A stretch of DNA of 64,000 bases. Origin: Acidimicrobiia bacterium (GTDB lineage: Bacteria; Actinomycetota; Acidimicrobiia; Spongiisociales; UBA5794). Within the stretch, counting starts at the first letter, position 1. Each line of letters starts with the position of its first letter. Below the pieces are notes generated by a model. That model saw only the letters and a list, made by a program, of their open reading frames with translations, ran no database searches and was not told the origin of the DNA. Location of the stretch: positions 10,781-74,780 of the forward strand of contig JBPCTY010000060.1 of assembly GCA_051011415.1 (NCBI GenBank). The letters are read 5' to 3'. This document shows, piece by piece, positions 1-55,941 of this stretch. Position numbers and translations under genes: made by a program.

Positions 1-1426
1 CGGTCGGAGGAAGCCCATATTCGAGTGCCAGGATGTAGTCATCGTCCACAGGATGCGCTTCATCGTCTCCTGCTTGCCTCGATGCAGCCTGGTCCTCGAA
101 CCTCGATCGCTGGTCAAACGGATCATTGAGCTCAGAAAAGGCGTTCGCATACTCATCGCCTGCGATGAACAGCTCGAACCGCTCGGTCACATGTGGCTTG
201 GAACGATGCGCACGTGACAAAGGAGAGATTTCGATCGGGTGTTCGGTCACGAAGATCGGATCCCACAACGTTGGCTCCACGACCTCGTCGAACAGCGCCT
301 CAATGAGTTTGCCGCTCCCCCAATGATCCTCGGGTTCCACGCCGTGCGAACGTGCGAGCGCTCGAAGATCGTCGACATCCGTGTCGTAGTCAATATCGGC
401 GGCGACCTCCTGCTGCACGAGCGAAAGCATCGACGCCCGCCGGTACGGACCGGCGAGGGACAGCGAACGGTCCATGTAGTTGATCGTCGTATCCCCGGTC
501 ACGGCGATTGCACAAGCGGCCGCCACCTCCTCGACGAGCAACATGATGTCCTCGTAGTCAGCAAACGCCTCGTACGACTCCAACATTGTGAACTCTGGAT
601 TGTGCGAGGAATCAATTCCTTCGTTGCGGAAGATCCGTCCGATCTCAAAAACACGTTCCAGACCGCCTACGACCAGTCGCTTCAGGTAGAGCTCGGTAGC
701 GATCCGAAGATACATGTCCTGATCAAGGGTGTTGTGATGCGTTCTGAACGGGCGTGCGGTCGCCCCCGTTGCTTGAGGGAGCAGCACCGGTGTCTCGACC
801 TCAATGTATCCCCGACCCTCGAACTGGCGGCGAAGCTCAGAGATCACGGTGGCTCTCGCAATCGCCGTCGCCCTCGCGTCTTCGTTCGCCATCAGATCGA
901 CGTACCGTCGCCTGCTGCGAGCCTCAACATCCTTGAGCCCGTGCCACTTGTCAGGGAGCGGGCGCAGACTCTTCTGGAGAAGCTCAAACGACGAGATGCG
1001 GACGCTCAGCTCTCCTCGCTTCGTGGCGATGACTTCTCCGGTCGCACCGACCCAGTCGCCGCTGTCCAGCTCGGAGAAGCGTCCGAAGCCGTCGTCGCCG
1101 AGCGTTCGCTTATCGACGAAGAGCTGGATCGTGCCCGAGACGTCGGAAAGTACGGCAAAGATCAGCTTCCCCATATTGCGGGTGTTCATCAGACGGCCAG
1201 CGACCGTCACCGCGTCCCCGGTTTCGGCTCCGGGGGCGAGATCGGTGTAGGTGTCTATCAGGTCGGCTGCGGTGTGCGTTCGGGCGAACGAATACGGGAA
1301 GCCTCCGTCCTCCATGACCTCGCGGTACTTGTCGACACGGGCACGGGTGAGTGGATGGTCCTCGAGTGGGTCGCTGTCGTCGATGACCTGCGGGTCGTCC
1401 TGTGTGTCGGCCGGTGTATCCGTCAT
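1..1426 (-). CDS. lysS: Lysyl-tRNA synthetase, class II. Partial: the C-terminus runs off the window start.
   Basis: Manual minus-strand translation from the ATG at 1424-1426 gives MTDTPADTQDD...GRLMNTRNMGKLIFAVLSDVSGTIQLFV (OB anticodon-binding domain) and ...GRIFRNEGIDSSHNPEFTMLE (class II motif 2). The ATG overlaps the coaX stop (ATGA). It is not in the ORF track because there is no in-window stop. It is antisense to the listed + ORF 239..1450. Confidence 0.85.
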   Translation of the reverse strand, partial: MTDTPADTQDDPQVIDDSDPLEDHPLTRARVDKYREVMEDGGFPYSFARTHTAADLIDTYTDLAPGAETGDAVTVAGRLMNTRNMGKLIFAVLSDVSGTIQLFVDKRTLGDDGFGRFSELDSGDWVGATGEVIATKRGELSVRISSFELLQKSLRPLPDKWHGLKDVEARSRRRYVDLMANEDARATAIARATVISELRRQFEGRGYIEVETPVLLPQATGATARPFRTHHNTLDQDMYLRIATELYLKRLVVGGLERVFEIGRIFRNEGIDSSHNPEFTMLESYEAFADYEDIMLLVEEVAAACAIAVTGDTTINYMDRSLSLAGPYRRASMLSLVQQEVAADIDYDTDVDDLRALARSHGVEPEDHWGSGKLIEALFDEVVEPTLWDPIFVTEHPIEISPLSRAHRSKPHVTERFELFIAGDEYANAFSELNDPFDQRSRFEDQAASRQAGDDEAHPVDDDYILALEYGLPPT

Positions 1427-2196
1427 GCAGAGTCCTGGTTGAGTTCGTGAATCAGTCGCAGACCTTCGAGCGTGAGATACGGGTCGATGGTGTCAACGCT
1501 GGTGCAGTGCGGCACGATGGTAGAGGCAAGTCCCCCCGTGGCCACCCTTGTGACGTCGCCACCGAGGTCTGCAGCGATTCGCTCCATGATCCCATCGACG
1601 AGGCCCGCATGGCCGTAGATCGCCCCGGACTGAATCGCCTCGACGGTTCCCTTTCCGATCACCGAGCGTGGCGGTGAGAACTCGACCCGTCGGAGTGCCG
1701 CGGTTCCGGACACAAGCGCGTTCGTTGCAATTTCGAGGCCAGGGGCAATTGCTCCACCGAGGTATGCACCGTTCGGGCCTACAACGTCGAAGTTGGTTGA
1801 GGTTCCGAAATCGACCACAACTACCGGCGTGTCGTACTTCGCCTTGGCGGCCACTGAGTTGACGATTCGATCCGCACCGACCTCCCGTGGATTGTCAATC
1901 TCGATTGAGAGCCCGGTGCGCACGCCGGGTTCTACCACCACAGCGCTTCCGGAAACGACGTGTGGTGCCACGTCGCGGACAGTGGTGGTCATGGCCGGGA
2001 CCACGCTCGAGACACAGAGACCCTTGATGTCCGACTGTCCGAAGCCATCGGCGGCAAGGATGCCGGACACTTGAAGGCGGAGTTCATCCGATGTCGCCGT
2101 CGGGTCTGTGGAGATCCGCCAATGGCCGATGAGCTCTCGACCGTCGAACATACCGAGTGCGACCTGGGTGTTTCCGATGTCAATGGTCAGCAGCAT
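1423..2196 (-). CDS. coaX: Type III pantothenate kinase
   Basis: N-terminus MLLTIDIGNTQVALG, an ASKHA/ROK-like fold, 257 aa. Sits in the conserved lysS-coaX-panC neighbourhood. Confidence 0.9.
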   Translation of the reverse strand: MLLTIDIGNTQVALGMFDGRELIGHWRISTDPTATSDELRLQVSGILAADGFGQSDIKGLCVSSVVPAMTTTVRDVAPHVVSGSAVVVEPGVRTGLSIEIDNPREVGADRIVNSVAAKAKYDTPVVVVDFGTSTNFDVVGPNGAYLGGAIAPGLEIATNALVSGTAALRRVEFSPPRSVIGKGTVEAIQSGAIYGHAGLVDGIMERIAADLGGDVTRVATGGLASTIVPHCTSVDTIDPYLTLEGLRLIHELNQDSA

Positions 2197-3092
2197 TACG
2201 AACCTCCGTAGAGAATGCTTGTACCGGCGAGCCGTACCCCGCGATCAACGGTGCCGGATTGCGTGTCTGTCTCGAACGTCATGTTGTCGATGAGCCTGAC
2301 GCCCCCTACCCGAGCAGCGATTGCCAGGAACTGTCGTCCGGAAAAGGCCATCGCTGGGCGTGCGGTCTCTGCATCGGCGAGTTCCACGTACTCGAGATCT
2401 ACTCCGGGAACCGTCGAGACAGCCGAGGCGACCTGTTCTCTGATGCTTTGCACGGAGCGATCGCCGTCAACGAACCGATCCGCTGCGGTTGACAGCGAAG
2501 CAAAGAGGTTGTCGGCAGCCACCCTGGAGTCTGCATCGAGATGGACGTTCCGGCTCGAGAGAGCGAGCCCGCTGTGTTCCCGCACAATCGGCATGCCCTT
2601 CACCGTCACGGGCAGCGAGAGGTCCGTCCCGAGCGATGACACCACAGCTAGTTGCTGGGCGTCCTTCCTTCCGAAGTAGGCGGTATCCGGCTGAACCCCG
2701 GCAAGGAGCTTCGTCACGACTGTTGCCACTCCATCGAAATGCCCTGGCCGGTGCATGCCCTCCATTGCATCGGCAACGCCACCGACGGAAACGACAGTCC
2801 TGTTCCCGGCCGGATACATGTAGTCGACAGAGGGAGCAAACAGGCACGTTGCGCCTGCCTCCGTGGCAAGAGCCACATCGCGCTCGAAGTCGGTCGGATA
2901 TGCGTCGAGATCCGATGGATCGCCGAACTGTGTCGGGTTGACGAACACGGACACCACCACCGAGTCATTCTCAGCTGCGGCGGCTTCGACCAAGCTGAGG
3001 TGCCCTTCATGCAGGAAGCCCATCGTGGGTACAAGTCCGACCTTCCCGCTGACTGAGGATCTGACCTGCTCGAACGTGTCGAGTACCGTCAC
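2196..3092 (-). CDS. panC: Pantoate--beta-alanine ligase
   Basis: MGFLHEGHLSLV (the HxGH nucleotidyltransferase motif), 298 aa. Overlaps coaX by 1 nt. Confidence 0.92.
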   Translation of the reverse strand: MTVLDTFEQVRSSVSGKVGLVPTMGFLHEGHLSLVEAAAAENDSVVVSVFVNPTQFGDPSDLDAYPTDFERDVALATEAGATCLFAPSVDYMYPAGNRTVVSVGGVADAMEGMHRPGHFDGVATVVTKLLAGVQPDTAYFGRKDAQQLAVVSSLGTDLSLPVTVKGMPIVREHSGLALSSRNVHLDADSRVAADNLFASLSTAADRFVDGDRSVQSIREQVASAVSTVPGVDLEYVELADAETARPAMAFSGRQFLAIAARVGGVRLIDNMTFETDTQSGTVDRGVRLAGTSILYGGS

Positions 3093-3868
3093 TGATCCTG
3101 CTCCTGCGACATCGAGGACAGCGTTATTGCGGCCTCAGTCATCGACCGAAAGGCGATGAACTCTGCCACTCCCACACGGTCGACTGCCTCCATCTGCCTG
3201 TTCACCGTCTCACGATCACCTCGTGCGATGGGGCCCGTACGTGCATTCATCGGACCAAGCGCATATGCGTTTGCGATAGCTGCCTCAACCAGGGGCCTCG
3301 TCGATTCGAATGGGACGTCTGCGGCCGTCATGAGCCTGTATGCAAGTTCGAGAGCCGCGTTGGTGTAGTTCGACGCAGCCGAGGCCGCTGCGTGATACAG
3401 CACCTTGTCCTCGTCGGCCAGCCGGAATGGTCTGCATCCAAGAGATTCTGCGAACTCGTCCAGGGTTGACGCCAACGGTTCGGTTGCGGTCACTGCCATC
3501 CATGCGCCAGCGAGATTCGCTGCACCGGTTTCGGCATCCGGCAGTGTCTGAAGCGGGTGCAGGGAGCCAACCGGAATGCCGATAGTGGCAAGCGGGTCAA
3601 GCGAATGGATCGACACAGACCCAGAGAGATGCACAGTTGGTATCGGATCGGCGGACACGAGTTGCTCGGCGAGAACGGGAATGGCTCCGTCGCTGACTGC
3701 AACAAGCCGCAGATCGGGATGACCTTCGGTAGACCCGACCAATGCCGCAATCCGTGTGACAGCCTCATCACTCCGGCCCCTGACCCCGGTGATCGTGTGA
3801 CCGGATCGGTGGGAAGCGAGGGCCAGCGCGCCTGCAGCACGCCCGGTTCCGACAATCTCAATGTGCAT
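3089..3868 (-). CDS. Rossmann-like/DUF2520-type protein. The probable true start is the internal Met (MHIEIVGTGRAAG).
   Basis: A GxGxxG-like N-terminus (IVGTGRAAGALALA). Ala/Leu-rich. Position between panC and folK is as in mycobacterial synteny. The 5' extension of the listed ORF is Arg/Cys-rich and looks non-coding. Confidence 0.6.
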   Translation of the reverse strand: MHIEIVGTGRAAGALALASHRSGHTITGVRGRSDEAVTRIAALVGSTEGHPDLRLVAVSDGAIPVLAEQLVSADPIPTVHLSGSVSIHSLDPLATIGIPVGSLHPLQTLPDAETGAANLAGAWMAVTATEPLASTLDEFAESLGCRPFRLADEDKVLYHAAASAASNYTNAALELAYRLMTAADVPFESTRPLVEAAIANAYALGPMNARTGPIARGDRETVNRQMEAVDRVGVAEFIAFRSMTEAAITLSSMSQEQDQ

Positions 3869-3912
3869 ATTGGCTCCGATCCGTATGGGTATCGGTCCTT
3901 CGGATGGGGAGG

Positions 3913-5253
3913 CTAGGACACAGCCGGTCTCTGCGAAACAGGAATGGCGAGGTTGAGTGAGTGACCGACAGCGGCATACGACCCGCTCTGTCCCCAGACC
4001 CTGATGGTTCCGGCGACCGTCCGGCCGGCAAAGTGATCGATCGACGCCTCTGCCAAGTACCAAGGCTCATCTACGACCGATGCAAACCGAGCAGAAATTT
4101 CAATGGTGGGCGTGGTCAGCGGGGTGGAATCGGGCAGATACCCCATCGCCTGCAACGTGGCTGGCCAGATGAGTGCGTCGATCGGCATGAAGATCGATGC
4201 GGCCGTCAGATATGGGTCCTTCCATCCCCGAGTCACATTGGGTGTCCAGGCACGCAGCACAGGCTCTGAAGCATCGACGAGATCTGGGACGTCCCAACGC
4301 TCGAATGCGGTCCATGATCGCGCCGAGTTGCCTGGCTTCCCACCGGCGCGGATCGCAAGCTGGTCTCCGGCGTGCGCTTGTGACCGGGGCATCACCTCCG
4401 CAGCTGGGGGACCGGTCACCGGGTTCTTCGGCCGTGCAAGGAGCCCCAGGTTGCAGTCGCCTGCAATCCGTCCGTCGTGATGGAGCGTGACTTTCAGGTC
4501 TATCGAGGATCGAGATCGACGATCCTCATGAACCCGTACCTCGATTGTTTCACCTGCTGGAACTGGCTCGATGTAGCGGTAGTTGAGCTGGGACACCTCC
4601 CCACCCGGCATCGACCGACCGGCTGCACGAAGAGCTATGCCAGCAAGTAAGGCGCCAAATGCATCGCCATTTGAATTCGACCAATCCTTCGAGAGCGTGA
4701 TCTCGTAAGGGCCATCACCTTGCAGCGTTGTGGCATCGGCAAGTCCCTCCAACCACCGCAACTCGTCGACAAGGACGGGCCCAGTCACTCTCTTCAGCCC
4801 GTCGTCGTCCAAGCCCGCCAGCGCATCGGCATAGGTGCCGTCCGCGTCAGAGACGCCTGGGTCGATGTCGGTGAGCGGAACAAGCACGAAGGCTCGATTG
4901 CGCATCTCGGGATGCGGGATGGTTAGCCCGGGCTCATCGACGGTCTCGCCGTCGTACCAAAGGATGTCGCAATCAAGCGTTCGAGGACCCCAACGTGTAT
5001 CCCGTGTTCGACCACGTTCCGCCTCGATGGCAATGAGCGACTTGAGCAGCTCTGATGGGTGCAGCGAGGTTTCAAGAGCGACCACAGCATTCAGGTAGGG
5101 GTGTTGGCCGTCCGGGCCACCAACCGGATTGGTCTCGTATATCGGGGAGCCGTCAACGACTGACCCAAGCTCTCCGATGGCTATCAGCGCTTGGTCAAGA
5201 TGGGCGCGGCGATCGCCGACGTTCGAGCCGAGAGCAACGAATGCCTTCGACAC
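3913..5253 (-). CDS. folK: HPPK (FolK) fused to a C-terminal acyl-CoA thioesterase II-like (TesB-like double hotdog) domain
   Basis: The N-terminal ~160 aa (ALGSNVGDR...PYLNAVVALET...RWGPRTLDCDIL...NRAFVLVPL) are classic HPPK. The C-terminal ~280 aa have two hotdog-like halves resembling TesB (GALLAGIALRAA...ETIEVRV...DGR; TIEISARFAS...). Confidence 0.8.
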   Translation of the reverse strand: MSKAFVALGSNVGDRRAHLDQALIAIGELGSVVDGSPIYETNPVGGPDGQHPYLNAVVALETSLHPSELLKSLIAIEAERGRTRDTRWGPRTLDCDILWYDGETVDEPGLTIPHPEMRNRAFVLVPLTDIDPGVSDADGTYADALAGLDDDGLKRVTGPVLVDELRWLEGLADATTLQGDGPYEITLSKDWSNSNGDAFGALLAGIALRAAGRSMPGGEVSQLNYRYIEPVPAGETIEVRVHEDRRSRSSIDLKVTLHHDGRIAGDCNLGLLARPKNPVTGPPAAEVMPRSQAHAGDQLAIRAGGKPGNSARSWTAFERWDVPDLVDASEPVLRAWTPNVTRGWKDPYLTAASIFMPIDALIWPATLQAMGYLPDSTPLTTPTIEISARFASVVDEPWYLAEASIDHFAGRTVAGTIRVWGQSGSYAAVGHSLNLAIPVSQRPAVS

Positions 5254-5255
5254 GT

Positions 5256-5738
5256 CTAGATCTCGGGAATCAGGCGACGGCCCTCTGGTCCGATCGCTCT
5301 CCCAAGGATGCGTTGGACAACGTCGGTTGCGACGATCGGGTCGTCGAGCATTTCCGAATGGATCAGATACCCCGCGAGCAGGCCGCCAAGCGTGTCGTCG
5401 ATCGTGTCCCGGTGAACAAGGACCACTGCTTCCGGGTCTTCGAGAGCTTCGGAGAGCACTTCGAAAACGGGAAGCGCATCTTCAGGCTCCAGCTCCGTGT
5501 CCACCTCGCACGAATAGAACTCAAAGCCCGCAGCCTCGTACGCAACCGAATTCTGGTTGGTACCGAGGAACGAGACTATTGAGTTGACGCCCTGATCCTG
5601 TAGCCAGATCAGCTCTTCTTCGCGTCGAACCTTGCGATGTTGAAAGCCATAGCCACCGATGCGTTCGGCCACAGCCAAGCGGCTCGTGATCACCCATCGG
5701 AAGCCGCGAGGCTCAAGTCCTGTTGATTTTTTCGGCAT
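5256..5738 (-). CDS. Hypothetical protein with possible dual-specificity-phosphatase-like topology that lacks the CX5R catalytic loop
   Basis: 160 aa. ...VLVHRDTIDDTLGGLLAGYLIH sits where a DUSP P-loop would be, but without Cys or Arg. It occupies the slot where folB normally lies between folK and folP. Confidence 0.45.
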   Translation of the reverse strand: MPKKSTGLEPRGFRWVITSRLAVAERIGGYGFQHRKVRREEELIWLQDQGVNSIVSFLGTNQNSVAYEAAGFEFYSCEVDTELEPEDALPVFEVLSEALEDPEAVVLVHRDTIDDTLGGLLAGYLIHSEMLDDPIVATDVVQRILGRAIGPEGRRLIPEI

Positions 5739-6594
5739 CGTGCTCCTCGGGCACCATAGCCTTGGCCGACACCGCTACATCAACTGCGAGCCGAACATTG
5801 TGAACCCGCAAGATCTTGGCCCCTTTGAGCACCGCAGCAGCCATGGTCGCCGCTGTTGCACCGTCTCGCTCTGACGGTTCCGTATGGCCACGAACCGGCT
5901 CGAGGAGGCTGCCAAGAAAGCCCTTCCGACTGGTCCCTACGACCACCGGATAGCCGAGGTGGGTGAATGCGCCCAGCTCTCGCAAAAGGGTCAGGTTGTG
6001 GTCAAGCGTCTTTCCGAACCCAATGCCCGGATCGATGGCGACCGACTCCACCCGAATGCCGGCCTCTATCGCATCGAGTGACCTCCTGGCGAGGTACTTC
6101 CCGATCTCGACGACGACATCGTCATAGGTCGGGTCGATCTGCATCGTTTCCGGTGTCCCTTGCATATGCATGACCACTACACCAGCGCCCGAGTCTGCAC
6201 ACACTGATCGCATGTCCGGGTTGGTGAGCCCTGTGACGTCATTGACGATCTTTGCACCCGCCGCGAGGGCTTCCTCAGCGATCGCTGGCTTCGACGTATC
6301 GACCGATACGACGATTCCCTCAGATGCCAATGCCGCGACAACCGGCATTACTCGGTCATGCTCGGTTCTCACGTCGATGGGCTCGGCACCCGGCCGTGTG
6401 GACTCTCCACCAATGTCAACGATCGCAGCACCATCAGACACCATCGCACGTGCATGTTCCACGGCGTTGTTGATGTTGACGTAGTCTCCGCCATCGCTGA
6501 ACGAGTCGGGCGTTACGTTCAGAATCCCCATCACAAGTGGATCGCACAGGGGAAGAGAGAGGTCAGCTACCCGCCATACCGATGTGTCATCCAC
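5713..6594 (-). CDS. folP: Dihydropteroate synthase
   Basis: Pterin-binding domain: GILNVTPDSFSDGG, DIGGESTRPGA, VSVDT. Confidence 0.9.
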   Translation of the reverse strand: MDDTSVWRVADLSLPLCDPLVMGILNVTPDSFSDGGDYVNINNAVEHARAMVSDGAAIVDIGGESTRPGAEPIDVRTEHDRVMPVVAALASEGIVVSVDTSKPAIAEEALAAGAKIVNDVTGLTNPDMRSVCADSGAGVVVMHMQGTPETMQIDPTYDDVVVEIGKYLARRSLDAIEAGIRVESVAIDPGIGFGKTLDHNLTLLRELGAFTHLGYPVVVGTSRKGFLGSLLEPVRGHTEPSERDGATAATMAAAVLKGAKILRVHNVRLAVDVAVSAKAMVPEEHDAEKINRT

Positions 6595-6597
6595 CGG

Positions 6598-8511
6598 CTA
6601 GGTGATGCCTTCGGCCCTCGCAGCCGTGATGCCGGCCTCGACAGGGGGCAGCGCCTCGGGAGCCTTGAGCCGAATGGAACCATCCGCAGCGTGCTCCCAC
6701 TTGGGTACATCGTGGAGAACCTCGATGACCTCGTCTGCGCCAAGCGTTTCTCGATCCATCAGCGCATCGGCGATGCGATGGAGGGCCTCTTCATGTGTCG
6801 CAAGAATGGTGCGAGCCTCGTCGTGAGCCTGCGTGATGAGGAAGCGGACCTCCTCATCGATAGAGGCAGCGACTTCGTTGGATAGATCCTGGCCCTTCGA
6901 GTAGTCGCGTCCGAGGAAGACTTCACCCTCGGGCGTTCCGTATCGCAGTGGACCGAGCTTCTCGGACATGCCGTATTCCATGACCATCTTGCGAGCGATG
7001 CTTGTCGCTTTCTCAATGTCGTTAGAAGCTCCGGTGGTTGGGTCGACGAAGATCAGCTCCTCAGCGGTCCGGCCTCCGAGCAACATCGCAAGCTGATCGA
7101 TCATCTCCGACCTGCGTGCGTAGTACTTGTCCTCAAGCGGAAGCGCCATCGTGTAGCCGCCTGCGCGCCCTCGCGGAATGATCGTGACCTTGTGAATTGG
7201 GTCTGCGTTCGGAAGGGCATAACCGACCAATGCGTGCCCACCTTCGTGGTACGCCGTGATCTTCCTCTCCTGTTCGGACATGACCCTGCTCTTGCGTTCT
7301 GGGCCCGCGATAACTCTTTCGATTGCCTCTTCAAGAGTCGGCATCGTGATCTTGTCGTCGTCGCGCCGGGCTGCAAGAAGCGCTGCCTCGTTGATCAGGT
7401 TTGCGAGATCGGCACCGGTGAACCCTGGCGTCTGACGTGCGAGAATGGACAGCTCAATGTCTCCGGCGAGCGGCTTGCCCTTTGCGTGGACTTCGAGAAT
7501 CTTCTCCCGACCGACGAGGTCTGGTCGGTCGACCACGATCTGCCTGTCGAAACGGCCTGGCCGCAATAGGGCGGGATCGAGAATGTCGGGACGGTTGGTC
7601 GATGCGATGACGATCACGCCGGACTTCACGTCGAAGCCATCGAGCTCGACGAGTAGCTGGTTGAGCGTCTGCTCGCGCTCATCGTGGCCACCACCAAGAC
7701 CGGCACCACGATGTCGGCCCACTGCGTCAATCTCATCTATGAAGACGATGGAAGGCGCATTCTGTTTTGCCTGATCAAACAGATCACGCACCCGGGATGC
7801 ACCGACGCCCACAAACATTTCGACGAAGTCGGAGCCGGAGATGGAGTAGAACGGAACGTTCGCCTCACCAGCCACCGCACGGGCAAGCAAGGTCTTTCCT
7901 GTTCCAGGGGGGCCGTACAGCAGGACGCCCTTGGGGATCTTCGCTCCCATGGCGCGGAACTTCTGAGGATGTGCGAGGAATTCTTTGATCTCTTCAAGCT
8001 CCTCGACGGCTTCGTCGGCTCCCGCCACGTCGGAGAACAGAACTTTCGGAGCGTCCTTTGAGACCTGCTTCGCCTTCGACTTGCCGAACTGCATGACGCG
8101 GTTTCCGCCACCCTGCATCTGCATGATGATGAAGATGAACAGACCAAAGATGAGCAGGTACGGCAGGATCGAGGTCAGGAACCACTCAAAGAGCGTCGGG
8201 TTCTCGGCATCAACAGTGAAAGTGACATCCGCCTCTTGCAGCTTCTCTGTGAGCGTTGCTGCGTAGTCAGCTGGATACCTAACGAGGATGTCGACCTCTT
8301 CGCCGTCGACGATTGCGGTGCCGGTGAGTTCGTTCGACCTGTCCTTCATAAGAAGGTCCTGGTTCACATCACCGGTGGCGAGATACGCCTCGAAGTCACT
8401 GAGGGACAATTCGGTCGGCTGTGTCGCCTGATTGAAGACGAGCTGGAAGCCCATCACCACGAGGAATATCACGGCGAGGTACACGAGGATTGTTCTCGCG
8501 GTCCTGTTCAC
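6598..8511 (-). CDS. ftsH: ATP-dependent zinc metalloprotease FtsH
   Basis: N-terminal TM helices, Walker [19 protein letters not shown], the SRH region, and the HEGGHALVG zinc site. 637 aa. Confidence 0.95.
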
Positions 8512-12178: not shown

Positions 12179-12427
12179 TCAGCAGTCAGGGCCCCCGTTT
12201 TTACGTTCTTGTTGTATTAACGCTCGGAGTTGGTCGAAAAGTTCCTCAGGAGGAGCAGATTTTCCAGATTCGGCGATTTTTGTCTTCAGCGAACGCTCGA
12301 ACTCGTATGCATCGACACATCCGCCGCATCTCTTGAGATGCAGCGAAATACGTGCTCGGCGCGTCACAGTGAGCTCCTGATCGATGTACTGATATACGTA
12401 CTCGACTGCGTTTTCGCATCCGCTCAT
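12179..12427 (-). CDS. rsrA: Anti-sigma factor RsrA/RshA (zinc-associated anti-sigma, ZAS)
   Basis: H-x3-C-x2-C motif ([12 protein letters not shown]) plus an N-terminal Cys ([10 protein letters not shown]). A start at MSGCE gives an ATGA overlap with the sigH stop. Confidence 0.8.
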
Positions 12428-13020
12428 GGCGTTGGCTCCACTAGTCCGTGTTCGACTGCCAGGTTCCACAACTTCCTTTGGAGCGCTTTTCTTCCCCGAT
12501 GTAGCCGAGACATGACGGTTCCAATGGGAACATCAAGGATTTCGGCGATCTCTTTGTACGAGAATCCTTCGACATCCGCGTAGATCACCGGCAACCTGAA
12601 GTTCTCCGGCAGGCTTTCGATCGCCTCAACAATGTCCTCATCCACGAACATGTCGAGTGCTGTGCGTTCGGCACTCTCGCTTGCGCCAGATTGCTCGCCG
12701 AGCCTCCTGAACAAGTACATGTCCTGGAGCTCACCGAGCTCGACCTCACTCGGTCTTCGCTGCTTTTTGCGGTACTTGTTGATATAGGTGTTGGTGAGGA
12801 TGCGATACAGCCAAGCCTTGAGGTTCGTCCCGGCTTCGAACGAGTCGTAGGCCCGATAGGCCTTGAGGTAGGTCTCCTGAACGACATCCTCGGCGTCTGC
12901 AGGGTTGCGAGTCATGCGCAACGCAGCCGAGTACAGCTGCGGTGCGAATTCCATCGCATCTGCCTCAAAGGTTGCCTGGTCCGCCATGTCGCTGAGGGTA
13001 ACGACAGCACGGTGGTTCAC
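12424..13020 (-). CDS. sigH: ECF sigma factor SigH/SigR (thiol-oxidative stress)
   Basis: Near-identical to mycobacterial SigH blocks: [74 protein letters not shown]. Confidence 0.9.
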
Positions 13021-13099: not shown

Positions 13100-14029
13100 T
13101 CAGCCCTCGTAATTGCTCACGAAGTTGAACGTACGAATCGTTCCGAAGGCATCCTTTGCCTTGACCTTGAACGTCTGACCCTTTGGCGCCGACGGGAACT
13201 CAACCCGCACCCACCAATTGCCTTCGCCGTCCGCAGTCGTTGAGCCACTCCCGAAGTCGGACGTGATCTTCACGGTGGTTCCCGGCTTTGCGTAGCCGGA
13301 GAACTCGTCATACGGAACCGGTTCTTCGCACGAGCCATACTTCTGATGTGCGGTGAAATCCCAGGCGGCGGCCTTAGTCGTTGTCGTTTCTTTCGGCTCC
13401 GGCTTGTCGTAGTAGACGGTCATACGAACCTCAGCAACGTTGCCTGCAGCGTCCGTCGAGGCAAACACCACGCCGTTCGCCCCGCCCGCAAGAACGAGGT
13501 CGACAGACCATGCTCCGTCTGCGTTGACCTGCGCAGGGAACTTCCCGCTTGCCATGACACTTGCGCCGGCCTCGGTCTCACCCGTAAACGTGACGGTGCT
13601 GGCTTCGAGGTGTTCGCCATTCTGCGGCGAAAGCACAACCAAATGCGGTGGGGTCACGTCAATGGGAGGGGCCTCTTCTGACGGCTCGTCCCCAACGACC
13701 GCTGCTGGCGTCTCTGTCGGGGGCTCAGTCGGTGTGGTTTCAACGACGGTCGTCGTGACCTGATCGTCGGCCGGTGTTGTCGTCGTGACTGCGGTCGTTG
13801 GCGGCTGAGTGGTGTCGGCAGGAACGTCATCCTCTGGCGAAGGGGCAAGCACCAGCACCGCAACGACGGCAATACCTGCAGTCGCACCGGCGACCGCATA
13901 GCGAAGCATCCTCCAAGTTGCGGCCGCGCCAGCGGCTGCACCAACCGTTCCAACAGGGACGGGAAGGTCCGAAACCGACTCATGGACAGCTTCGGCGGCA
14001 GAACGTGCGAGTGTGTCGAGCGAGTTCAT
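13100..14029 (-). CDS. Membrane protein in the anti-sigma position: short cytoplasmic N-terminus, one TM, a Thr/Pro-rich linker, then an extracytoplasmic Ig-like domain plus a Cys-containing C-terminal domain
   Basis: Start [11 protein letters not shown] overlaps the ECF sigma stop (ATGA). TM is [25 protein letters not shown]. The extracellular part is paralogous to CDS 14761..15663 ([15 protein letters not shown]..., TVYYDKP). Confidence 0.6.
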
Positions 14030-14595
14030 CGGTCTTCTCCCAGTACGGCGCCCAAGCGTTCCGCCAGGGTCTGGCGTCCCTTGTGGAGGTGGACTTTCAC
14101 GGTGTTTGGTGAGCATTCGAGGATGTCGGCGATATCGGAGATCGAACGATCCTCCAGGTAGTGGAGGGCAACGGCCTGCGACTGACGCGTTGGCAGCCTC
14201 CGTACTGCATCCCAGAAGACCTCTGCCTCTGCGGGAAGTGATGGCAAGACAGTTGCCTCTCTTCGCATCCCCCCGAGCTTGGCTAGGGCCTTTGTCTCCG
14301 ACACTCGCCGTCGGAAACGCGACACCGACAGGTTCGACACGATCCGGCGAACCCATGCCTCAGGTTTGTCGTAGGCGCTGATTCGATCCCAATTGCGGTG
14401 CGCGGTCAGAAAGGCTTCCTGCGCGAGGTCTTCTGCAGCTGCGCTGCTTCCTGAGAGTGCGTATGCCAGGCCGACCACGGATCGGTACTCCCGTTCGTAG
14501 AAACGTTCGAAAGGTTCCCGAGCGCGAACCGCCGCAGCCGAAGACGCCGAGCCTTCGTCTGTGGCCGTCGATCGGTTGCTAGGTCGAACGGTCAT
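14026..14595 (-). CDS. ECF (extracytoplasmic function) sigma-70 family factor
   Basis: Region 2 (FERFYEREYRSVVGLAYALSG...AEDLAQEAFLTAHRNWDRI) and region 4 HTH (LPTRQSQAVALHYLEDRSISDIADILECSPNTVKVHLHKGRQ). Confidence 0.85.
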   Translation of the reverse strand: MTVRPSNRSTATDEGSASSAAAVRAREPFERFYEREYRSVVGLAYALSGSSAAAEDLAQEAFLTAHRNWDRISAYDKPEAWVRRIVSNLSVSRFRRRVSETKALAKLGGMRREATVLPSLPAEAEVFWDAVRRLPTRQSQAVALHYLEDRSISDIADILECSPNTVKVHLHKGRQTLAERLGAVLGEDR

Positions 14596-14760: not shown

Positions 14761-15663
14761 ATGAGGGGCAAGCCCTATCTCGTCGCAGTAGCGGCCTTTG
14801 TGATCGTGCTGTTCGGCGGCGCTGCTATTGCTGGCGTCGGTTCGTTCCGCGATCAGTCGAACGATTCAGCCGGGGTAAGCCCTTATGCGGCACCAAGCAC
14901 CGATCTGGATGTTGCAGAGTGGACGCCGACGACCAAGGCCGAAGCACCAGTGGAAACGACCACAACCACTCCCCAGAAGGAGAAGGAAGCGGTCGAGACA
15001 AAGACGGAGTCCGGCAAGGACCACGGCACCAAGTCCGATGAGAATTCTGATGAGGACACGTCGGATGAGAAGGAAAAGGACCACAAAGAAGAAGCCAAGG
15101 AGACCAAGGCCGGCGACCTGTTCTCCTTGACGTTCCCCAAGGACGGCTCACACGTCACCAAGAAGGTTGTCGCTTTTGGCGGCGAGGCTGCAGAAGGCGT
15201 CATCGTCCACCGTGGCAAGTATTCGGCACAGCCCAAGAATGGCGAGTGGGTGATGGAGCTGGTGCTCTCCCCAGGCAAGAACACGGTCGGGTTCAAGGCG
15301 ATCAACGAAGCTGGCGGGATTGATGAAGCTGTCGTCACCGTCTACTACGACGCCCCAGCGGGCGACGAAGAGAAGAAGGAAAAGCCGAAGTCCGAGTTCT
15401 ATGCAAAGCAGAAGTATGGAAGTTGCGGTGAAGAAGTCCCGTACGACGTGTTCTGGGGCAAAGCGATGCCAGGAGCCACGATCACCGCATCCTCGCCATA
15501 CGGTGGCAACTCCGTCACGGCCAATGCAGAGGGCCACTGGGAAATGAAGGTCACCTTCGCCTCGGCGCCCGTGGGCAAGACCTTTGAGGTCGGCATCAAG
15601 GCATCGACCGGTGAGAAGAAAGGCTTCAAGTTCACCAACACCGGAGGCGGTGGAGACCACTAG
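14761..15663 (+). CDS. Secreted/membrane-anchored protein paralogous to the extracytoplasmic domains of CDS 13100..14029, with a Lys/Glu/Thr-rich low-complexity linker
   Basis: N-terminal TM/signal MRGKPYLVAVAAFVIVLFGGAAIAG. An Ig-like block ...TVYYDAP and a C-terminal domain FYAKQKYGSCGEEVPYDVFWGKAMPGATI...APVGKTFEV both align with the 13100..14029 product. Confidence 0.65.
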   Translation: MRGKPYLVAVAAFVIVLFGGAAIAGVGSFRDQSNDSAGVSPYAAPSTDLDVAEWTPTTKAEAPVETTTTTPQKEKEAVETKTESGKDHGTKSDENSDEDTSDEKEKDHKEEAKETKAGDLFSLTFPKDGSHVTKKVVAFGGEAAEGVIVHRGKYSAQPKNGEWVMELVLSPGKNTVGFKAINEAGGIDEAVVTVYYDAPAGDEEKKEKPKSEFYAKQKYGSCGEEVPYDVFWGKAMPGATITASSPYGGNSVTANAEGHWEMKVTFASAPVGKTFEVGIKASTGEKKGFKFTNTGGGGDH

Positions 15664-35240: not shown

Positions 35241-35532
35241 CGGTGTGGCGCAGCGAAACTGCCACCGTTGCGGGCTGGCCGACGGCTGCTGGCCTGCTCA
35301 CCGACACGCTCGCCCTGCTGCCGGAGCTCCCGAGCGCTGCCCTCGCTGCCGCTGCTGCCCGTCGGGTGTCTGGAGAAGTCGCAGCCTGACGTGCACCTTC
35401 CCTGGAAGCGTGAAGAAGCTGGACTTCGGTCTTGGCGACCAGCGCTACCTCGACAATTCCAAACAGCAGAACGAGAACGACAGGCACGACGAGGGCGAAT
35501 TCGACGACTGCGCTCCCCCGCTCCAGATTCAC
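35170..35532 (-). CDS. tadE: TadE-like protein. GTG start overlaps the flp stop (GTGA).
   Basis: Canonical TadE N-terminus ERGSAVVEFALVVPVVLVLLFGIVE. Confidence 0.6.
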   Translation of the reverse strand: MNLERGSAVVEFALVVPVVLVLLFGIVEVALVAKTEVQLLHASREGARQAATSPDTRRAAAAARAALGSSGSRASVSVSRPAAVGQPATVAVSLRHTVAAPLLGGFTVDLRATTSMRTER

Positions 35533-35699
35533 ACACTGTCCGCGATCGAGATCACTCTCGCAAGAACCGTGTTGAAGAACGACGGGAGCATGTCCGATGT
35601 TGATGCCCACGTGATGAGCGCAAGCGCGACGATCGCCGCGGCGACAAGCACCAGGGCGTACTCCGCGGTCGCCTGCCCATTCTGTTTCTCGAGACGCAT
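35529..35699 (-). CDS. flp: Flp-family type IVb prepilin
   Basis: 57 aa from the internal Met: MRLEKQNGQATAEYALVLVAAAIVALALI. It has the Flp processing motif G/QATAEY and a hydrophobic helix. The listed 91-aa ORF has a spurious 5' extension. Confidence 0.7.
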   Translation of the reverse strand: MRLEKQNGQATAEYALVLVAAAIVALALITWASTSDMLPSFFNTVLARVISIADSV

Positions 35700-35760
35700 T
35701 CGTCTCCTCCTTACACCGTGGCTTCCGGCCACTTCGGTGGGAAGCTGGAACAGCCAGACA

Positions 35761-36363
35761 TCACAACGAGATGCGCGAGAGACCACCCACCACAGCCGGG
35801 CCAACGGTCAGAAGCACAAAGCCGGGGAGAGTCAGAAACGCAAGAGGGAAGAGAAGCTTCACTGGCAGCCGGTTGAGTCGTTCTTGTGCTGCCGCAGCCC
35901 TGTCCGCCCTCATCGTCATCGCAAGTGCCGACAGACCTGGCCCCAACGGACCGCCGGTGGTAGAGGACTTCTCAGCCTCGACAAAGATCTTCCTGATGGC
36001 CTCGGAATTGGGCTCAGCCCGCAGACCCGAACCAGTTCGCCGGAGCGCTTGTGCGATGTCAATGGCTACAGCTCCGCCAGCTTCACGCCCAGCGAGGGAA
36101 ACCGCGGAAATGAACGGCAAACCCGAGGCCGAAGCGAGCGACGTCACATCAACGGCCAACAACTCGGACTCCGCATCGATCCCGGTGCGAGCCTTCTTTG
36201 CGAGAGCCTTCCTCCAAGCAACAATGATCACGATCGCACCACTCGCGGCGAGCGTGAGCAGCGGACCGGCCACGATGACCGAAAGCGCAATGCCAAGGGC
36301 CAACGCAATCCAGTGCTTGCCGAGAAACGTCGCAATTGCTGTAGCCACTGCGACAGCTACCAC
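35761..36363 (-). CDS. tadC: Tad pilus assembly inner-membrane protein TadC (GspF-like)
   Basis: Multi-TM, T2SSF-like, directly downstream of tadB. Confidence 0.65.
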   Translation of the reverse strand: MVAVAVATAIATFLGKHWIALALGIALSVIVAGPLLTLAASGAIVIIVAWRKALAKKARTGIDAESELLAVDVTSLASASGLPFISAVSLAGREAGGAVAIDIAQALRRTGSGLRAEPNSEAIRKIFVEAEKSSTTGGPLGPGLSALAMTMRADRAAAAQERLNRLPVKLLFPLAFLTLPGFVLLTVGPAVVGGLSRISL

Positions 36364-37031
36364 CTCGACACTCGCTTGGTGACCGCAAGCACCACCGTCG
36401 CACCGACGACCATCATCAACGACCCGAGCAACATCGGCACCACAACCGGGGCACCTCCGGGTTCTGGCACTCCCCGGAGCAACACGATTGCAACGCCTAT
36501 CGCGAGTGGGAGTACACCCACGACGATCGCCGAGAACTTCGCCTGAGCAAGCGCAACGCCCGCATCCCTGCGCTGCTGTCGTTGGTCGCTCGCCTGGTGG
36601 GCAAGCATCAGCAGCGCTGGCCCGATTGAAGACCCTGCTTCCTCTGAAACAGATGCGACCGCAATGAACTCCCTACCCGTCGTTCGAAGATGAGGCATCA
36701 GCGATGCAGCGACATCTCGCATTGGTGCCCCCAACTCACACAACCGCCGGGTCGATCTGTCGACCAGGGTCGATGGCGAACTCGCAACCGCAGTCCTGAG
36801 GTCTGCTCCTGCCCGCACACCCGCCGAGAGATCACGGAGAAGCCGTTGAACCGCGTCTTCGTCGTGCGATCTCCTGCGGCTTTGAACCACACGGCTCGTG
36901 ATGACCACACCGAGGGCAGCGAAGGCGACCAGCGGCGACAGCACAAACGCAGCCGCAACCAAGACCGCACCAACCGGTGCGCGAAGAGCAAGAAGCGTTG
37001 CTGCGACGACAGCCGGAACGAGACGAATCAT
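36357..37031 (-). CDS. tadB: Tad pilus assembly inner-membrane protein TadB (GspF-like)
   Basis: Multi-TM, T2SSF-like. Start overlaps the tadA stop (ATGA). Confidence 0.65.
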   Translation of the reverse strand: MIRLVPAVVAATLLALRAPVGAVLVAAAFVLSPLVAFAALGVVITSRVVQSRRRSHDEDAVQRLLRDLSAGVRAGADLRTAVASSPSTLVDRSTRRLCELGAPMRDVAASLMPHLRTTGREFIAVASVSEEAGSSIGPALLMLAHQASDQRQQRRDAGVALAQAKFSAIVVGVLPLAIGVAIVLLRGVPEPGGAPVVVPMLLGSLMMVVGATVVLAVTKRVSRW

Positions 37032-38074
37032 TGGCGAGGAACCTCAGCGATGGGCGTCACCGAAGAGACTCGCCGACCGCCTGGGTGCCGCTCCACCATC
37101 ACCACCTGATCGATGGCCGTTCTTACGAGAGCACCGAGCGCACCGTGCGGCACATCCTCGGGAGCCATCGCGGCCAAGGTCTCGATGCGTGCAAGCGCTT
37201 GATCTGGTGATCGCGCATGCACTGTCGACATCGACCCGCTGTGCCCGGTTGCAAGGGCCTGCACCATGTCGAGTGCCTCGGCTCCCCTGACTTCGCCTAC
37301 GACGATCCTGTCTGGTCTCAACCGCAGGGCGTGTCGAACGAGCTGGCGCATCGTCACGTCACCAACTCCGTCCACGTTCGCTCTTCGGCTCTCAAGGCGC
37401 ACGACGTGGCCGCCAACCCGTAGTTCTGCGGCATCTTCGATCGTGACAATCCGCTCTCCGTCTTTCACCATCGAACACAGCACATTGAGCAGGGTTGTCT
37501 TGCCCGCACCTGTACCTCCCGCAACCACGAGGTTGGCTCTCGTATCTATGGCGACCCGAAGCTGTTCGGCGATCTCTGCGGTGAGGCAATCGCCCTCAAT
37601 CAGGTCATCAAGGGTGCGAACCGTGGGGTGAAACCTTCGTATCGCGACCACGGGCCCATCGACCGACGCAGGCGGTATCGCCGCATGCAATCTGGACCCG
37701 TCCGCAAGCCGTGCATCGACCGCTGGCTCGGACCGATCGATCCGGAGACCCAGAGGCGCAATCACCCTCCGCACCATCGCCAACACATCGTCGGCGTTCC
37801 GGAATCCGACATCAACGCGAACGAGCTCGCCCGACCGCTCCACCCAGACGTCGTCGTGGCCGTTGACCAGCACGTCGGTGATGCGTGCGTCACCAAGGAG
37901 AGACTCAAGCGGTCCGAGTCCAACCATCGCGTCGACCGCACGAACGACCGACTCGTTGCCTGCAAGCGGCGCTATCTCGGGCTGCAACCGAGCGCCCTCC
38001 GCAAGAAGGGCTTCTCGGTCCACGGGAGTGTCGGATGCAACAAGCGATGCGACCAGCCGGTCAACCTCACTCAC
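37028..38074 (-). CDS. tadA: Tad/Flp pilus assembly ATPase TadA/CpaF
   Basis: Walker A VVAGGTGAGKTTLLN, Asp box, Walker B and His box (ALATGHSGSMSTVHA). 348 aa. Confidence 0.9.
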   Translation of the reverse strand: MSEVDRLVASLVASDTPVDREALLAEGARLQPEIAPLAGNESVVRAVDAMVGLGPLESLLGDARITDVLVNGHDDVWVERSGELVRVDVGFRNADDVLAMVRRVIAPLGLRIDRSEPAVDARLADGSRLHAAIPPASVDGPVVAIRRFHPTVRTLDDLIEGDCLTAEIAEQLRVAIDTRANLVVAGGTGAGKTTLLNVLCSMVKDGERIVTIEDAAELRVGGHVVRLESRRANVDGVGDVTMRQLVRHALRLRPDRIVVGEVRGAEALDMVQALATGHSGSMSTVHARSPDQALARIETLAAMAPEDVPHGALGALVRTAIDQVVMVERHPGGRRVSSVTPIAEVPRQ

Positions 38075-54125: not shown

Positions 54126-54758
54126 CTAGCGATTCTCGATTTCGCCAGTCGAAATCTCGCCAATGGTCTCGCCAAGAATGATCTGATCGAGCGTTCGTGA
54201 CAGCAGGGCGTAGCTGACGGGGCCAGACACCTTTCCGACGACAATTCCGCTCCGGTCAACGAAGAAGGTTTCGGGTAGACCGAGCACACCCCACTCGAAA
54301 GCAGTCGCTGACCCTTCATCGAGCGCATACACGGTTGCGTCACTGACACCGAGTTCTGCAAGGAAGCCGTCCGCGTTGGAAGCCGAGTCCTGATAGTTGA
54401 CTGCGATAAAGGTGGTACCGAGTTCCGAGTAATCCTCCGCACCAGCAACGAGTGCCGCATGCTCTTGACGGCAGGCCAAACACCACGACGCCCAGAAGTT
54501 CACCACCACAATGTCACCTGCATGGTCGGCAACACTCACCGTGCCGTCTTCGTATTGCAGCGCCATCTCGCCTGTCGGAGCGGCTTCACCGATGAGCGGC
54601 GACGATGAGAGCGTCGGGTCTGATCCGAAACGGCTGGCAAAGACGATTCCGACGAGGATGAAGATCGCAGCACCTGCGATCGCTACCCAGGCCATCCTTG
54701 CGCCTCTGGCTTGCGGCTCGGCGCCAGGTCCATGCTGCTCGCTGTCCGCTGCCATCAC
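54126..54758 (-). CDS. ccmG: Thiol:disulfide oxidoreductase CcmG/DsbE/ResA-like (membrane-anchored thioredoxin fold)
   Basis: N-terminal TM, then a CxxC thioredoxin motif VVNFWASWCLACRQE. Last gene of the ccm operon, with an ATGA overlap to ccmI. Confidence 0.75.
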   Translation of the reverse strand: MMAADSEQHGPGAEPQARGARMAWVAIAGAAIFILVGIVFASRFGSDPTLSSSPLIGEAAPTGEMALQYEDGTVSVADHAGDIVVVNFWASWCLACRQEHAALVAGAEDYSELGTTFIAVNYQDSASNADGFLAELGVSDATVYALDEGSATAFEWGVLGLPETFFVDRSGIVVGKVSGPVSYALLSRTLDQIILGETIGEISTGEIENR

Positions 54759-55525
54759 TGGCTCTCAATCTGTGCGAGCAGAGCCACCACGCCATCTCGA
54801 ATCTCATCAGGAAGATCCGGTTCTCGTGCGAGAGCAAGGAGCAAGGGGACTGCTTCCGATGGGCGATCGAGAGTTACGAGGACGTTTGCGATGAACCATT
54901 GCGCAGGGAGGTAGTCGGGCTGGCGTTCGAGGGCTCTTTCGAGATAACCGAGCGCTACGTCTGGTCTTCCGGACAGGTAGGTCATCCAACCGACGTTTGC
55001 GAGTGCTTCCGGATGTCGTTCACGATCCGGTATCTCGAAGTAGTGATCGAGCGCCTTGTCGAATTCGCCTTCCTCGAAGTATCGGCGCGCAAGTGCAAGG
55101 CGCATCCCGATGACGTCGGGGTTCTGGGCGACGACCTCTTCCATCTGCTCATTCGAAATCTCAGACAGATCGACATCGCTGCCGTCGTCGAGCGCCTCAC
55201 TCGCCACACCCTCTGCGCCTTGCGTCGTGCCGTCCTCGAGCGAAACAACAGCGAGAACACCGATCGCAACGATGGCTACCCCAACGAGGACTGCACCAAG
55301 CAATGCCCTGGTCGAGATTCTCGTCGAGACAACCAGTGAAGAGGCTGAGTCGGATTCTGGAGGTGTGGCTTCGGTTGATTCAAGGGCTGCCAGCTCGCCC
55401 TCATACCGGCTGCGCAGATTCGCGGCGGTGTCGGAATCGAGATCCCCGGCGTCGACCTGGACCTGAAGATCGGCAAGCTCTTCTTTGAGTAGGGCGATCT
55501 GATCAGCTGCACCGGACGTACTCAT
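54755..55525 (-). CDS. ccmI: CcmI/CycH-like TPR protein of System I cytochrome c maturation
   Basis: One TM followed by TPR-like repeats (ALARRYFEEGEFDKALDHYFEI...ALGYLERALERQPDY). Overlaps the ccmH stop (ATGA). Confidence 0.6.
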   Translation of the reverse strand: MSTSGAADQIALLKEELADLQVQVDAGDLDSDTAANLRSRYEGELAALESTEATPPESDSASSLVVSTRISTRALLGAVLVGVAIVAIGVLAVVSLEDGTTQGAEGVASEALDDGSDVDLSEISNEQMEEVVAQNPDVIGMRLALARRYFEEGEFDKALDHYFEIPDRERHPEALANVGWMTYLSGRPDVALGYLERALERQPDYLPAQWFIANVLVTLDRPSEAVPLLLALAREPDLPDEIRDGVVALLAQIESQ

Positions 55526-55941
55526 GCGTCCGCTCCATCGCGTGTTCGAGAGCTTCGTCGCATCGACCCAAGCACGACAGCGCCGCCGATCAAGACCCCA
55601 ACGGGAACGGCCCACAGAGCTGCGGACCAGCGCAGCCTTCCCGAATCAAGCACGTAGCTCTCTCCGAAGTTCTCTGCGAACTCGTCGAGAATCTCATCGT
55701 CCGTGTAGCCATCGGCAACGAGGTCGGCAATCAGGATCCGGTAGTCGCCCGCGACACCAGAAGCCGAATCAGCAAGCGACTCACCGTTGCAAAATGGGCA
55801 CTTGATCTGACCGGACAGCGAAGCGACCCGTTCTTCAGCAGTGGGCTCTGATCTGTCGCCCGAGGCCAAACCAGCCACGATCACGACAAGCGCGACGGCA
55901 CCGAGGACGATCGCGATGATGTTCTTTGTCTTCTCAGGCAT
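55522..55941 (-). CDS. ccmH: Cytochrome c-type biogenesis protein CcmH (NrfF-like)
   Basis: CxxC-containing motif IKCPFCNGESLADSASGVA (compare CcmH RCPxCQNQSLxES), with TM helices on both sides. Confidence 0.75.
   Translation of the reverse strand: MPEKTKNIIAIVLGAVALVVIVAGLASGDRSEPTAEERVASLSGQIKCPFCNGESLADSASGVAGDYRILIADLVADGYTDDEILDEFAENFGESYVLDSGRLRWSAALWAVPVGVLIGGAVVLGSMRRSSRTRDGADA

Follow-up and report, generated by a model that had tools for sequence, protein, structure and literature searches.

Why would a pterin kinase of folate synthesis be joined to a thioesterase-like domain, within a folate gene cluster that has no folB? The question is raised by a protein of 446 amino acids (aa) encoded within a 64,000 nucleotide (nt) stretch of DNA from an Acidimicrobiia bacterium (contig JBPCTY010000060.1, positions 10,781 to 74,780; the whole stretch is referred to as the window). 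In this protein a FolK domain (HPPK, 6-hydroxymethyl-7,8-dihydropterin pyrophosphokinase) is followed by a domain with two hotdog folds that resembles the acyl-coenzyme A (CoA) thioesterase II, TesB. We examined the gene, folK::hotdog, by comparison of its domains with known families and structures, by its distribution among related loci, and by the selection acting on each of its two domains. The reading that we favor, and hold to be reasonably probable from sequence comparison, is that a canonical HPPK and an autonomous TesB-family hydrolase, likely acting upon an acyl-CoA-type thioester, would be fused in one protein. Coordinates are collected in Table 1.

Architecture and distribution of the fusion

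The N-terminal domain was matched at aa 5–132 by the Pfam family PF01288 (E 5e-39; 133.7 bits, cutoff 25.7), and the NCBIfam folK model TIGR01498 scored 137.3 bits (cutoff 54.1). Matches to HPPKs in PDB had E values of 1e-38 to 1e-43, and superposition by Foldseek upon the HPPKs of E. coli, S. aureus and Y. pestis gave target template modeling (TM) scores of 0.85–0.91 with a root-mean-square deviation of 1.4–2.5 Å. The domain resembles monofunctional HPPK in being 41–46% identical to these solved bacterial enzymes, in having all catalytic motifs, and in lying near folP. None of the 26 motif positions scored deviated from the family consensus; residues D94, D96, R82, R84, R91, H114, R120, N55 and F122 are present, and the corresponding functional residues of E. 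coli HPPK we take to be the Mg-binding Asp pair, the loop-3 Arg, His115, Arg121, Asn55 and Phe123.

The C-terminal region was matched at aa 189–261 by PF13622 (4HBT_3; 34–35 bits, cutoff 24.3). An AlphaFold model of the whole protein, made with 57 homologs, had a predicted local distance difference test score (pLDDT) of 94.9 and a predicted TM score (pTM) of 0.93; its C-domain of ~280 aa superposed by Foldseek upon the TesB-type double hotdogs 3rd7 (M. avium), 4r4u (Y. pestis TesB-CoA complex) and 1c8u (E. coli TesB), with E values of 1e-17 to 1e-18 and target TM scores of 0.77–0.82 over 271–290 columns. The first hotdog half covers about aa 165–272 and the second about aa 331–436. The second half is without a Pfam match of its own and is supported by the model and by Foldseek; the last ~175 residues searched alone gave no Pfam match, and PF20789 (4HBT_3C) is marked in the precomputed annotation of several homologs and unmarked for cluster P0370. 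The original prediction, made from the letters of the sequence, had called an HPPK followed by a TesB-like double hotdog and had proposed a domain scan of the C-terminal region; Pfam, AlphaFold and Foldseek agree with this call, and the strings that it quoted (FGALLAGIALRAAG, GETIEVRV, HHDGRIAGD and TIEISARFAS) all occur within the 446 aa translation.

A sequencing, assembly or frameshift error that joined two separate genes has a probability of practically nil; no point in its support was found. In a protein search, 117 clusters of 438–455 aa, drawn from NCBI, ENA, JGI and Logan assemblies, spanned 97–100% of the query at 42–100% identity; HPPK and hotdog were within a single open reading frame (ORF) in all of the related loci spanning the junction (25/25), including those on contigs of megabase size; and the linker between the domains is structured and confidently modeled. 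The fusion is therefore a genuine protein, and the frameshift or assembly artefact that had been named as a possible refutation is ruled out by these same clusters and ORFs.

There were 28 fusion loci counting the window, of which 18 were added by a metagenome scan with a C-domain-only alignment; a scan of species-representative genomes with a full-length alignment gave at least one full-length fusion locus (L006). The synteny of the window and the 27 others was identical, down to 27–33% C-domain identity, with the order ftsH, folP, a 145–160 aa ORF, folK::hotdog, DUF2520, panC, coaX, lysS; two divergent fusions (L090 and L091, with C-domains 27% and 33% identical to that of the window) had this same order, which recurred on long contigs (1.84, 2.09 and 2.70 Mb) and on many shorter ones; the metagenome-assembled genome GCA_027728645.1 likewise carries the fusion. 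The fusion is common in its lineage, and precomputed Pfam annotations already show it, although labeled only "HPPK"; the identical protein is an entry from an NCBI Acidimicrobiia metagenome-assembled genome under that name alone.

Known HPPK fusions include the FolB-FolK protein SulD (2cg8), the HPPK-DHPS proteins of plants, Plasmodium and Francisella, and the fungal FolB-HPPK-DHPS. Their partners are neighboring folate enzymes, whereas the partner here has a thioesterase fold with no known folate role. The combination had been called unexpected, and it is not described in the literature searched: we found no paper joining HPPK, thioesterase and fusion in this sense, and a 2007 comparative-genomics survey of folate genes has no mention of an HPPK-thioesterase fusion (PMC1971073).

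We infer a probable single origin of the fusion, in an Acidimicrobiia lineage, where the folate part of a conserved operon adjoins its pantothenate/CoA part. Origin from an unfused hotdog gene lying downstream of folK was considered and set aside, no such gene being seen in the non-fused relatives L004, L005 and L092. Other FolK fusions were observed in related Acidimicrobiia: a FolK::PanC protein of 469 aa (L005), a FolK of 316 aa extended at its C-terminus by a PEMT-like membrane region (L004 and L092), and a NUDIX::FolB::HPPK protein of 453 aa beside folE (L003). The C-terminus of FolK is evidently prone to fusion in Acidimicrobiia, because PanC and a membrane domain are joined to it in relatives.

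Putative active-site residues and selection on the two domains

Residues of the hotdog domain were mapped to TesB by profile alignment (hhalign) and by bridged alignment, in MAFFT, of the C-domains of 57 fusions with 66 unfused relatives (255–300 aa) and TesB; the E. coli TesB sequence used was checked as identical to PDB 1c8u. The conserved active-site residues of TesB are Asp204, Thr228 and Gln278, and its Arg82 contacts CoA (PMC4388271). The position of D359 is Asp in 57/57 fusions and in 66/66 unfused relatives; that of T383 is Thr in all 57 fusions and Ser, Thr or Asn among the unfused relatives; that of S432 is Ser in the 57 fusions and Ser or Gln among the unfused relatives, with Ser in about half; and that of R245 is Arg in 57/57 fusions. 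We compared the domain with the TesB of E. coli and Y. pestis (1c8u, 4qfw, 4r4u) and with the actinobacterial 4HBT_3 proteins 3rd7, 3u0a, 4r9z and 3bbj. It is like TesB in having two hotdog folds in one chain of ~280 aa, a catalytic Asp on the central helix of the second hotdog with a Thr 24 residues later, and an Arg at the CoA-contacting position. Unlike TesB, with which it is only 15–19% identical, it lies behind an HPPK, carries Ser in place of Gln278, and has invariant Trp, His, Asn and Arg residues peculiar to its clade; its D359 motif reads PIDALIW where the pi-helix of TesB reads SDxxFL, with the Asp and the hydrophobic pattern kept, Ser replaced by Ile, and Phe-Leu by Ile-Trp.

The C-domain forms a tight subfamily. 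When 1.84 billion cluster representatives were searched exhaustively with HMMER, 7 clusters came out at E≤1e-30; after a break in E there followed generic unfused relatives of ~280 aa (E 1e-18 or weaker) that were 25–32% identical to the C-domain. One cluster representative, P0362, has 277 aa, starts at the hotdog domain, and is 51% identical to the C-domain of the window; it may be a version without the fusion, or its gene call may be truncated. The bridged alignment showed that W167, N193, R226, W320, P338, H407 and N434 are invariant in the core clade of fusions and missing from the unfused relatives; the divergent fusions L090 and L091 are without H407, N434 and S432.

The two domains are under different selection. 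Among the 57 family members, seven have lost the motif residue at 7–15 of the 26 HPPK positions, those corresponding to Asn55, the loop-3 Arg, His115 and Phe123 among them, and these seven fall in at least 3 separate sublineages; the hotdog invariants were kept (25/25) in all 57 members, the seven with decayed HPPK included. In 20 related loci with folP, 0–3 of the 26 HPPK positions deviated, whereas in the 3 loci without folP (L086 and L089, of one sublineage, and L098, of another) 9–15 positions did; motif integrity thus tracked folP presence in 23/23 scorable loci. In the folP-less loci ftsH is followed directly by the homolog of the small ORF next to folK, described below as DSP-like. Decay of the HPPK motifs was observed also in a third sublineage (P0113, P0114). 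In the decayed pair L086 and L089 the ratio of nonsynonymous to synonymous substitution rates (dN/dS) was 0.28 over the HPPK-like domain and 0.088 over the hotdog domain; L001 and L006, an intact pair that has diverged to a similar extent, gave 0.075 and 0.070, respectively. The distant intact pairs, L001 with L002 or L087, were saturated (dS >1) and their ratios were left unused.

Because motif integrity tracks folP across loci, the HPPK domain appears really to serve folate synthesis together with FolP. Whatever keeps the hotdog domain and the DSP-like ORF in place appears to require neither HPPK catalysis nor FolP, since the invariants and the low dN/dS persist where folP was lost and HPPK had decayed. 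We speculate that the repeated loss of folP and HPPK would be compatible with a lineage that depends little upon de novo pterin synthesis (genome-size contigs, 1.8–2.7 Mb); a literature search gave no paper joining Acidimicrobiia, folate and auxotroph.

The protein would accordingly be pictured as two enzymes working largely independently. The HPPK would pyrophosphorylate 6-hydroxymethyl-7,8-dihydropterin and so supply FolP, the product of the second gene upstream; the hotdog site, D359, T383 and S432 together with R245, would activate water and hydrolyze an acyl-CoA-type thioester at the interface of the two hotdog halves. Hydrolysis of a thioester is likely, since the domain retains both the Asp and the Thr of the TesB site, the CoA-contacting Arg and, in place of Gln278, a Ser. 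The hotdog activity would be selected independently of folate synthesis, and its role may be tied to the pantothenate/CoA genes downstream (DUF2520, panC, coaX), e.g., by releasing free CoA; a CoA-related role is plausible because the folate genes end, and the pantothenate/CoA module begins, at the fusion point. The chemistry, the substrate class and the link to CoA are what we infer from the conserved residues and the gene order.

Several observations weigh against this picture. The Gln of the TesB triad is replaced by Ser (S432). The invariants peculiar to the core clade hint at an interface between domains or at a specialized substrate, perhaps one outside the standard range. PF20789, the family of the second hotdog half, gave no match in the window protein even at E≤10, and at E≤0.01 the fusion protein was matched within NCBIfam solely by folK models and by no thioesterase model; since no TesB-type model matched, the hotdog domain is a relative within the TesB family, not a TesB ortholog. 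By the pTM of 0.93 the two domains would be packed against each other in a fixed way, so that the halves would not be fully independent structurally. The decayed HPPK-like domain is still partly constrained (dN/dS 0.28, not 1), which is consistent with a structural role beside the hotdog domain, as is the pTM. Finally, folB is absent from the cluster in 28/28 fusion loci and present in 3/3 non-fused clusters and in the FolB-containing fusion L003; this perfect association is left unexplained by a thioesterase, although it is probably a single ancestral event that cannot be weighed statistically as 28 independent observations.

The fixed packing would also suit a hotdog domain that serves as a sensor of CoA or acyl-CoA and modulates HPPK, thereby coupling the supply of folate to pantothenate/CoA synthesis. 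PanB needs methylene-tetrahydrofolate, and the fusion lies exactly at the folate to pantothenate/CoA junction of the operon; linkage of folK with pantothenate genes is, moreover, widespread (PMC1971073). We regard a sensor as rather unlikely: the invariant catalytic Asp, Thr and Ser would be needless for a pure sensor, and the hotdog domain was kept unchanged in loci that have lost folP and in which HPPK, the supposed target, is defunct.

The missing folB and the conserved neighbor of folK

The original prediction had noted that the cluster is without folB, folE and panD, and this absence stands. A Pfam scan of the window ORFs of ≤320 aa and of ORFs in unassigned gaps revealed no FolB, GTP cyclohydrolase I, GTP cyclohydrolase IB, PTPS or aspartate decarboxylase, and a six-frame tblastn search with Acidimicrobiia FolB and FolE and with E. 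coli PanD (the query sequence checked against PDB) found none of these in the window or in any fusion locus. Among the best 120 of 7412 matches in a FolB profile search, none was on a contig equal in length to a fusion-bearing one, which is a weak negative. Not all of these absences are peculiar to the window: folE is absent also from L004 and L092, and panD from all loci. In the 3/3 non-fused relatives folB sits between the small DSP-like ORF and folK, the order being ftsH-folE-folP-small ORF-folB-folK::panC-coaX in L005 and ftsH-folP-small ORF-folB-folK, with the membrane extension on FolK, in L004 and L092; in L003, folE adjoins the NUDIX::FolB::HPPK fusion.

This position of folB, vacant in every fusion locus, invites the supposition that the hotdog domain, alone or with its DSP-like neighbor, substitutes for FolB by making or delivering 6-hydroxymethyl-dihydropterin to the fused HPPK. 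Such a proposal would be in keeping with the tight predicted packing of the two domains, with the core clade's own polar invariants (H407, N434 and R226), and with the recognition of missing-FolB cases as an open problem (PMC1971073). A pure substitute for FolB should decay together with its pathway, yet where folP was lost (3 loci in two sublineages) and HPPK had decayed, the hotdog domain retained its 25 invariants and a dN/dS of 0.088. L090 and L091, which are without H407, N434 and S432, are also without folB. The catalytic residues of TesB and its CoA-contacting Arg are, moreover, conserved in the fusion family. Hotdog enzymes are known as thioesterases and dehydratases; we know of none that carries out retro-aldol cleavage of a pterin side chain. 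The lineage-specific replacement that had been raised is disfavored by these results, and we consider it very improbable indeed.

The small ORF beside folK::hotdog had been described as unrelated and as following folK at a spacing of 2 nt. The spacing is correct (TAG, 2 nt, GTG), but the ORF precedes folK in the direction of transcription; nor is it unrelated. Its product of 160 aa has no Pfam or NCBIfam match and has 997 detectable homologs, the best 120 of which are 68–100% identical. An AlphaFold model (pLDDT 87) was matched by Foldseek to 1yn9, 4erc, 2img and 5z59 (TM 0.63–0.73, E 1e-6 to 1e-7), which points to the fold of dual-specificity and protein tyrosine phosphatases (DSP/PTP), and a profile match to PDB 25xa_A was obtained at E 8e-4. 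Matches of the profile to "Pizza" designer proteins in PDB were disregarded as summed weak repeats with no significant individual stretch, and a single-sequence PDB search with the C-terminal half of the ORF found nothing.

The predicted fold is that of the Cys-dependent DSP/PTP phosphatases (baculovirus RNA 5'-phosphatase 1yn9, DUSP23/VHZ, Tk-PTP, Cdc14, PIR1), and the P-loop lies likewise between a beta strand and a helix (VLVH...GYL). Unlike these enzymes the 160 aa protein reads HRDTIDDT (H109 to T116) instead of HCxxGxxR, so that the nucleophilic Cys and the Arg of the HCx5R signature are gone; it is without a family match and sits within a folate operon. The loop is invariant in 39 homologs, and reads HAEEVNDR in L005 and HREIIDDV in L004. 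The model would thus place the protein in the DSP/PTP fold without making it a canonical member of the family. Its dN/dS of 0.026 is comparable to that of FtsH (0.037), and cysteine-less DSP-fold proteins of 157–187 aa, flanked by folP on one side and by folB or folK on the other, are conserved in the folate operon of Acidimicrobiia; the ORF is retained even where folP was lost and HPPK decayed. That the 160 aa protein itself replaces FolB was rejected, since its homologs adjoin a canonical folB in L004, L005 and L092.

A wider loss may also be envisaged, in which FolB and FolE are missing from the whole genome and pterin arrives by a non-orthologous route through the hotdog domain (H407, N434, R226, W320), the DSP-fold neighbor, or both, each having in addition a second role independent of folate. 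That second role would explain why the hotdog and the DSP-like ORF persist after folP loss; we nevertheless hold this reading to be very unlikely. In a milder version, the clade would run FolK and FolP as a salvage branch upon exogenous hydroxymethyl-pterin and would repeatedly lose even that. The remainder of the probability, beyond a thioesterase, a FolB substitute, a sensor and an artefact, falls to functions not considered.

Other genes of the window and significance

The cluster continues downstream of the fusion with a PanG-like DUF2520 gene, panC and coaX. The DUF2520 protein is a homolog of the PanG-type ketopantoate reductase (PMC4572677). Its mechanically called ORF of 324 aa has a TTG start and shares 150 nt with the end of the fusion gene; the lengths of homologs (259–270 aa) and the sequence make the ATG at 3868 the likely start, leaving an intergenic gap of ~45 nt. 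Upstream, folP directly adjoins ftsH as had been described, its end being 3 nt from ftsH.

Elsewhere in the window, two divergent paralogous genes encode secreted or membrane-anchored proteins with a common C-terminal region (KYGSC.E.VPYD...), one of which matches Glucodextran_B. Of two extracytoplasmic function (ECF)-type sigma-70 genes, one overlaps the upstream part of the stop-to-stop ORF of the minus-strand paralog and the other is just downstream of it; a similar pair of sigma and Glucodextran_B genes occurs in L087. Genes for a redoxin (thioredoxin fold) and for a tetratricopeptide (TPR)-repeat protein are followed by a cytochrome c maturation cluster matched by Pfam (CcmH, CcmE, CcmC-like, CcmB and the CcmA ABC ATPase). 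A small DUF4244 protein and two T2SSF-type membrane proteins look like part of a Tad/Flp-type pilus locus; an ORF of 598 aa on the opposite strand is without a Pfam match and is probably a shadow ORF.

Table 1. Location of the folK::hotdog gene, its domains and codons, and of neighboring and related features. Locations are window positions unless a locus or contig is named.
Feature	Location	Strand	Basis or remark
folK::hotdog ORF	3913..5253	-	446 aa; GTG start; TAG stop at 3913-3915
HPPK (FolK) domain, aa 1-135	4849..5253	-	Pfam, NCBIfam and PDB matches; Foldseek; motif table
Structured linker and N-terminal extension of hotdog domain, aa 136-164	4762..4848	-	AlphaFold secondary structure; pLDDT >90
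TesB-type double-hotdog domain, aa 165-446	3916..4761	-	PF13622; Foldseek; PF20789 in homologs
R245 codon (TesB CoA-contacting Arg82)	4519..4521	-	Bridged MAFFT; codon check
D359 codon (TesB catalytic Asp204)	4177..4179	-	hhalign; bridged MAFFT; codon check
T383 codon (TesB Thr228)	4105..4107	-	hhalign; bridged MAFFT; codon check
S432 codon (at TesB Gln278 position)	3958..3960	-	Bridged MAFFT; codon check
coaX (type III pantothenate kinase)	1423..2196	-	Pfam
panC	2196..3092	-	Pfam
DUF2520 / Rossmann-like protein	3089..3868	-	PF10728 E 5e-29; sequence; homolog lengths
DUF2520, mechanical ORF	3089-4063	-	324 aa
Conserved 160 aa ORF, DSP/PTP fold (predicted)	5256..5738	-	Overlaps folP by 26 nt; ends 2 nt before folK::hotdog
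folP (dihydropteroate synthase)	5713..6594	-	PF00809 E 2.5e-84; TIGR01496
ftsH	6598..8511	-	Pfam
DSP-fold homologs in non-fused relatives	L004:7158-7631; L005:7053-7616; L092:9522-9995		
folP-less loci, regions	L086:7460-11317; L089:7462-11317; L098:1-3302		
Fusion-bearing contigs	ERZ25039600 contig_91; ERZ25039600 contig_8800; ERZ21269636 contig_45149		2.70 Mb; 2.09 Mb; 1.84 Mb
FolK::PanC	L005:8001-9410		469 aa
FolK with membrane PEMT-like extension	L004:8001-8951; L092:10366-11316		316 aa
NUDIX::FolB::HPPK	L003:2495-3856		453 aa
Secreted or membrane-anchored paralogs	13100-14359; 14761-15663	-; +	Divergent
ECF-type sigma-70 genes	12424-13020; 14026-14595	-; -	
DUF4244 and T2SSF-type genes	35529-37043	-	Pilus-like
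ORF of 598 aa	34753-36546	opposite to pilus-like genes	Probably shadow ORF
Redoxin, TPR and cytochrome c maturation genes	54126-60539	-	Pfam

Both domains of folK::hotdog come from well-known families, and the evidence speaks against a new folate enzyme. A TesB-family thioesterase domain is, however, an undescribed partner among FolK fusions; annotation pipelines call the protein just HPPK or, once, "thioesterase family protein". The loci without folP provide a natural experiment in which one domain of a fusion becomes a pseudoenzyme when its partner gene is lost, while the other stays fully constrained. The analysis also exposes a very conserved, cysteine-less protein with a predicted phosphatase fold within the folate operon of Acidimicrobiia, and it offers, in a lineage whose conserved actinobacterial folate operon is without folB, a checkable candidate for the cases of missing FolB.

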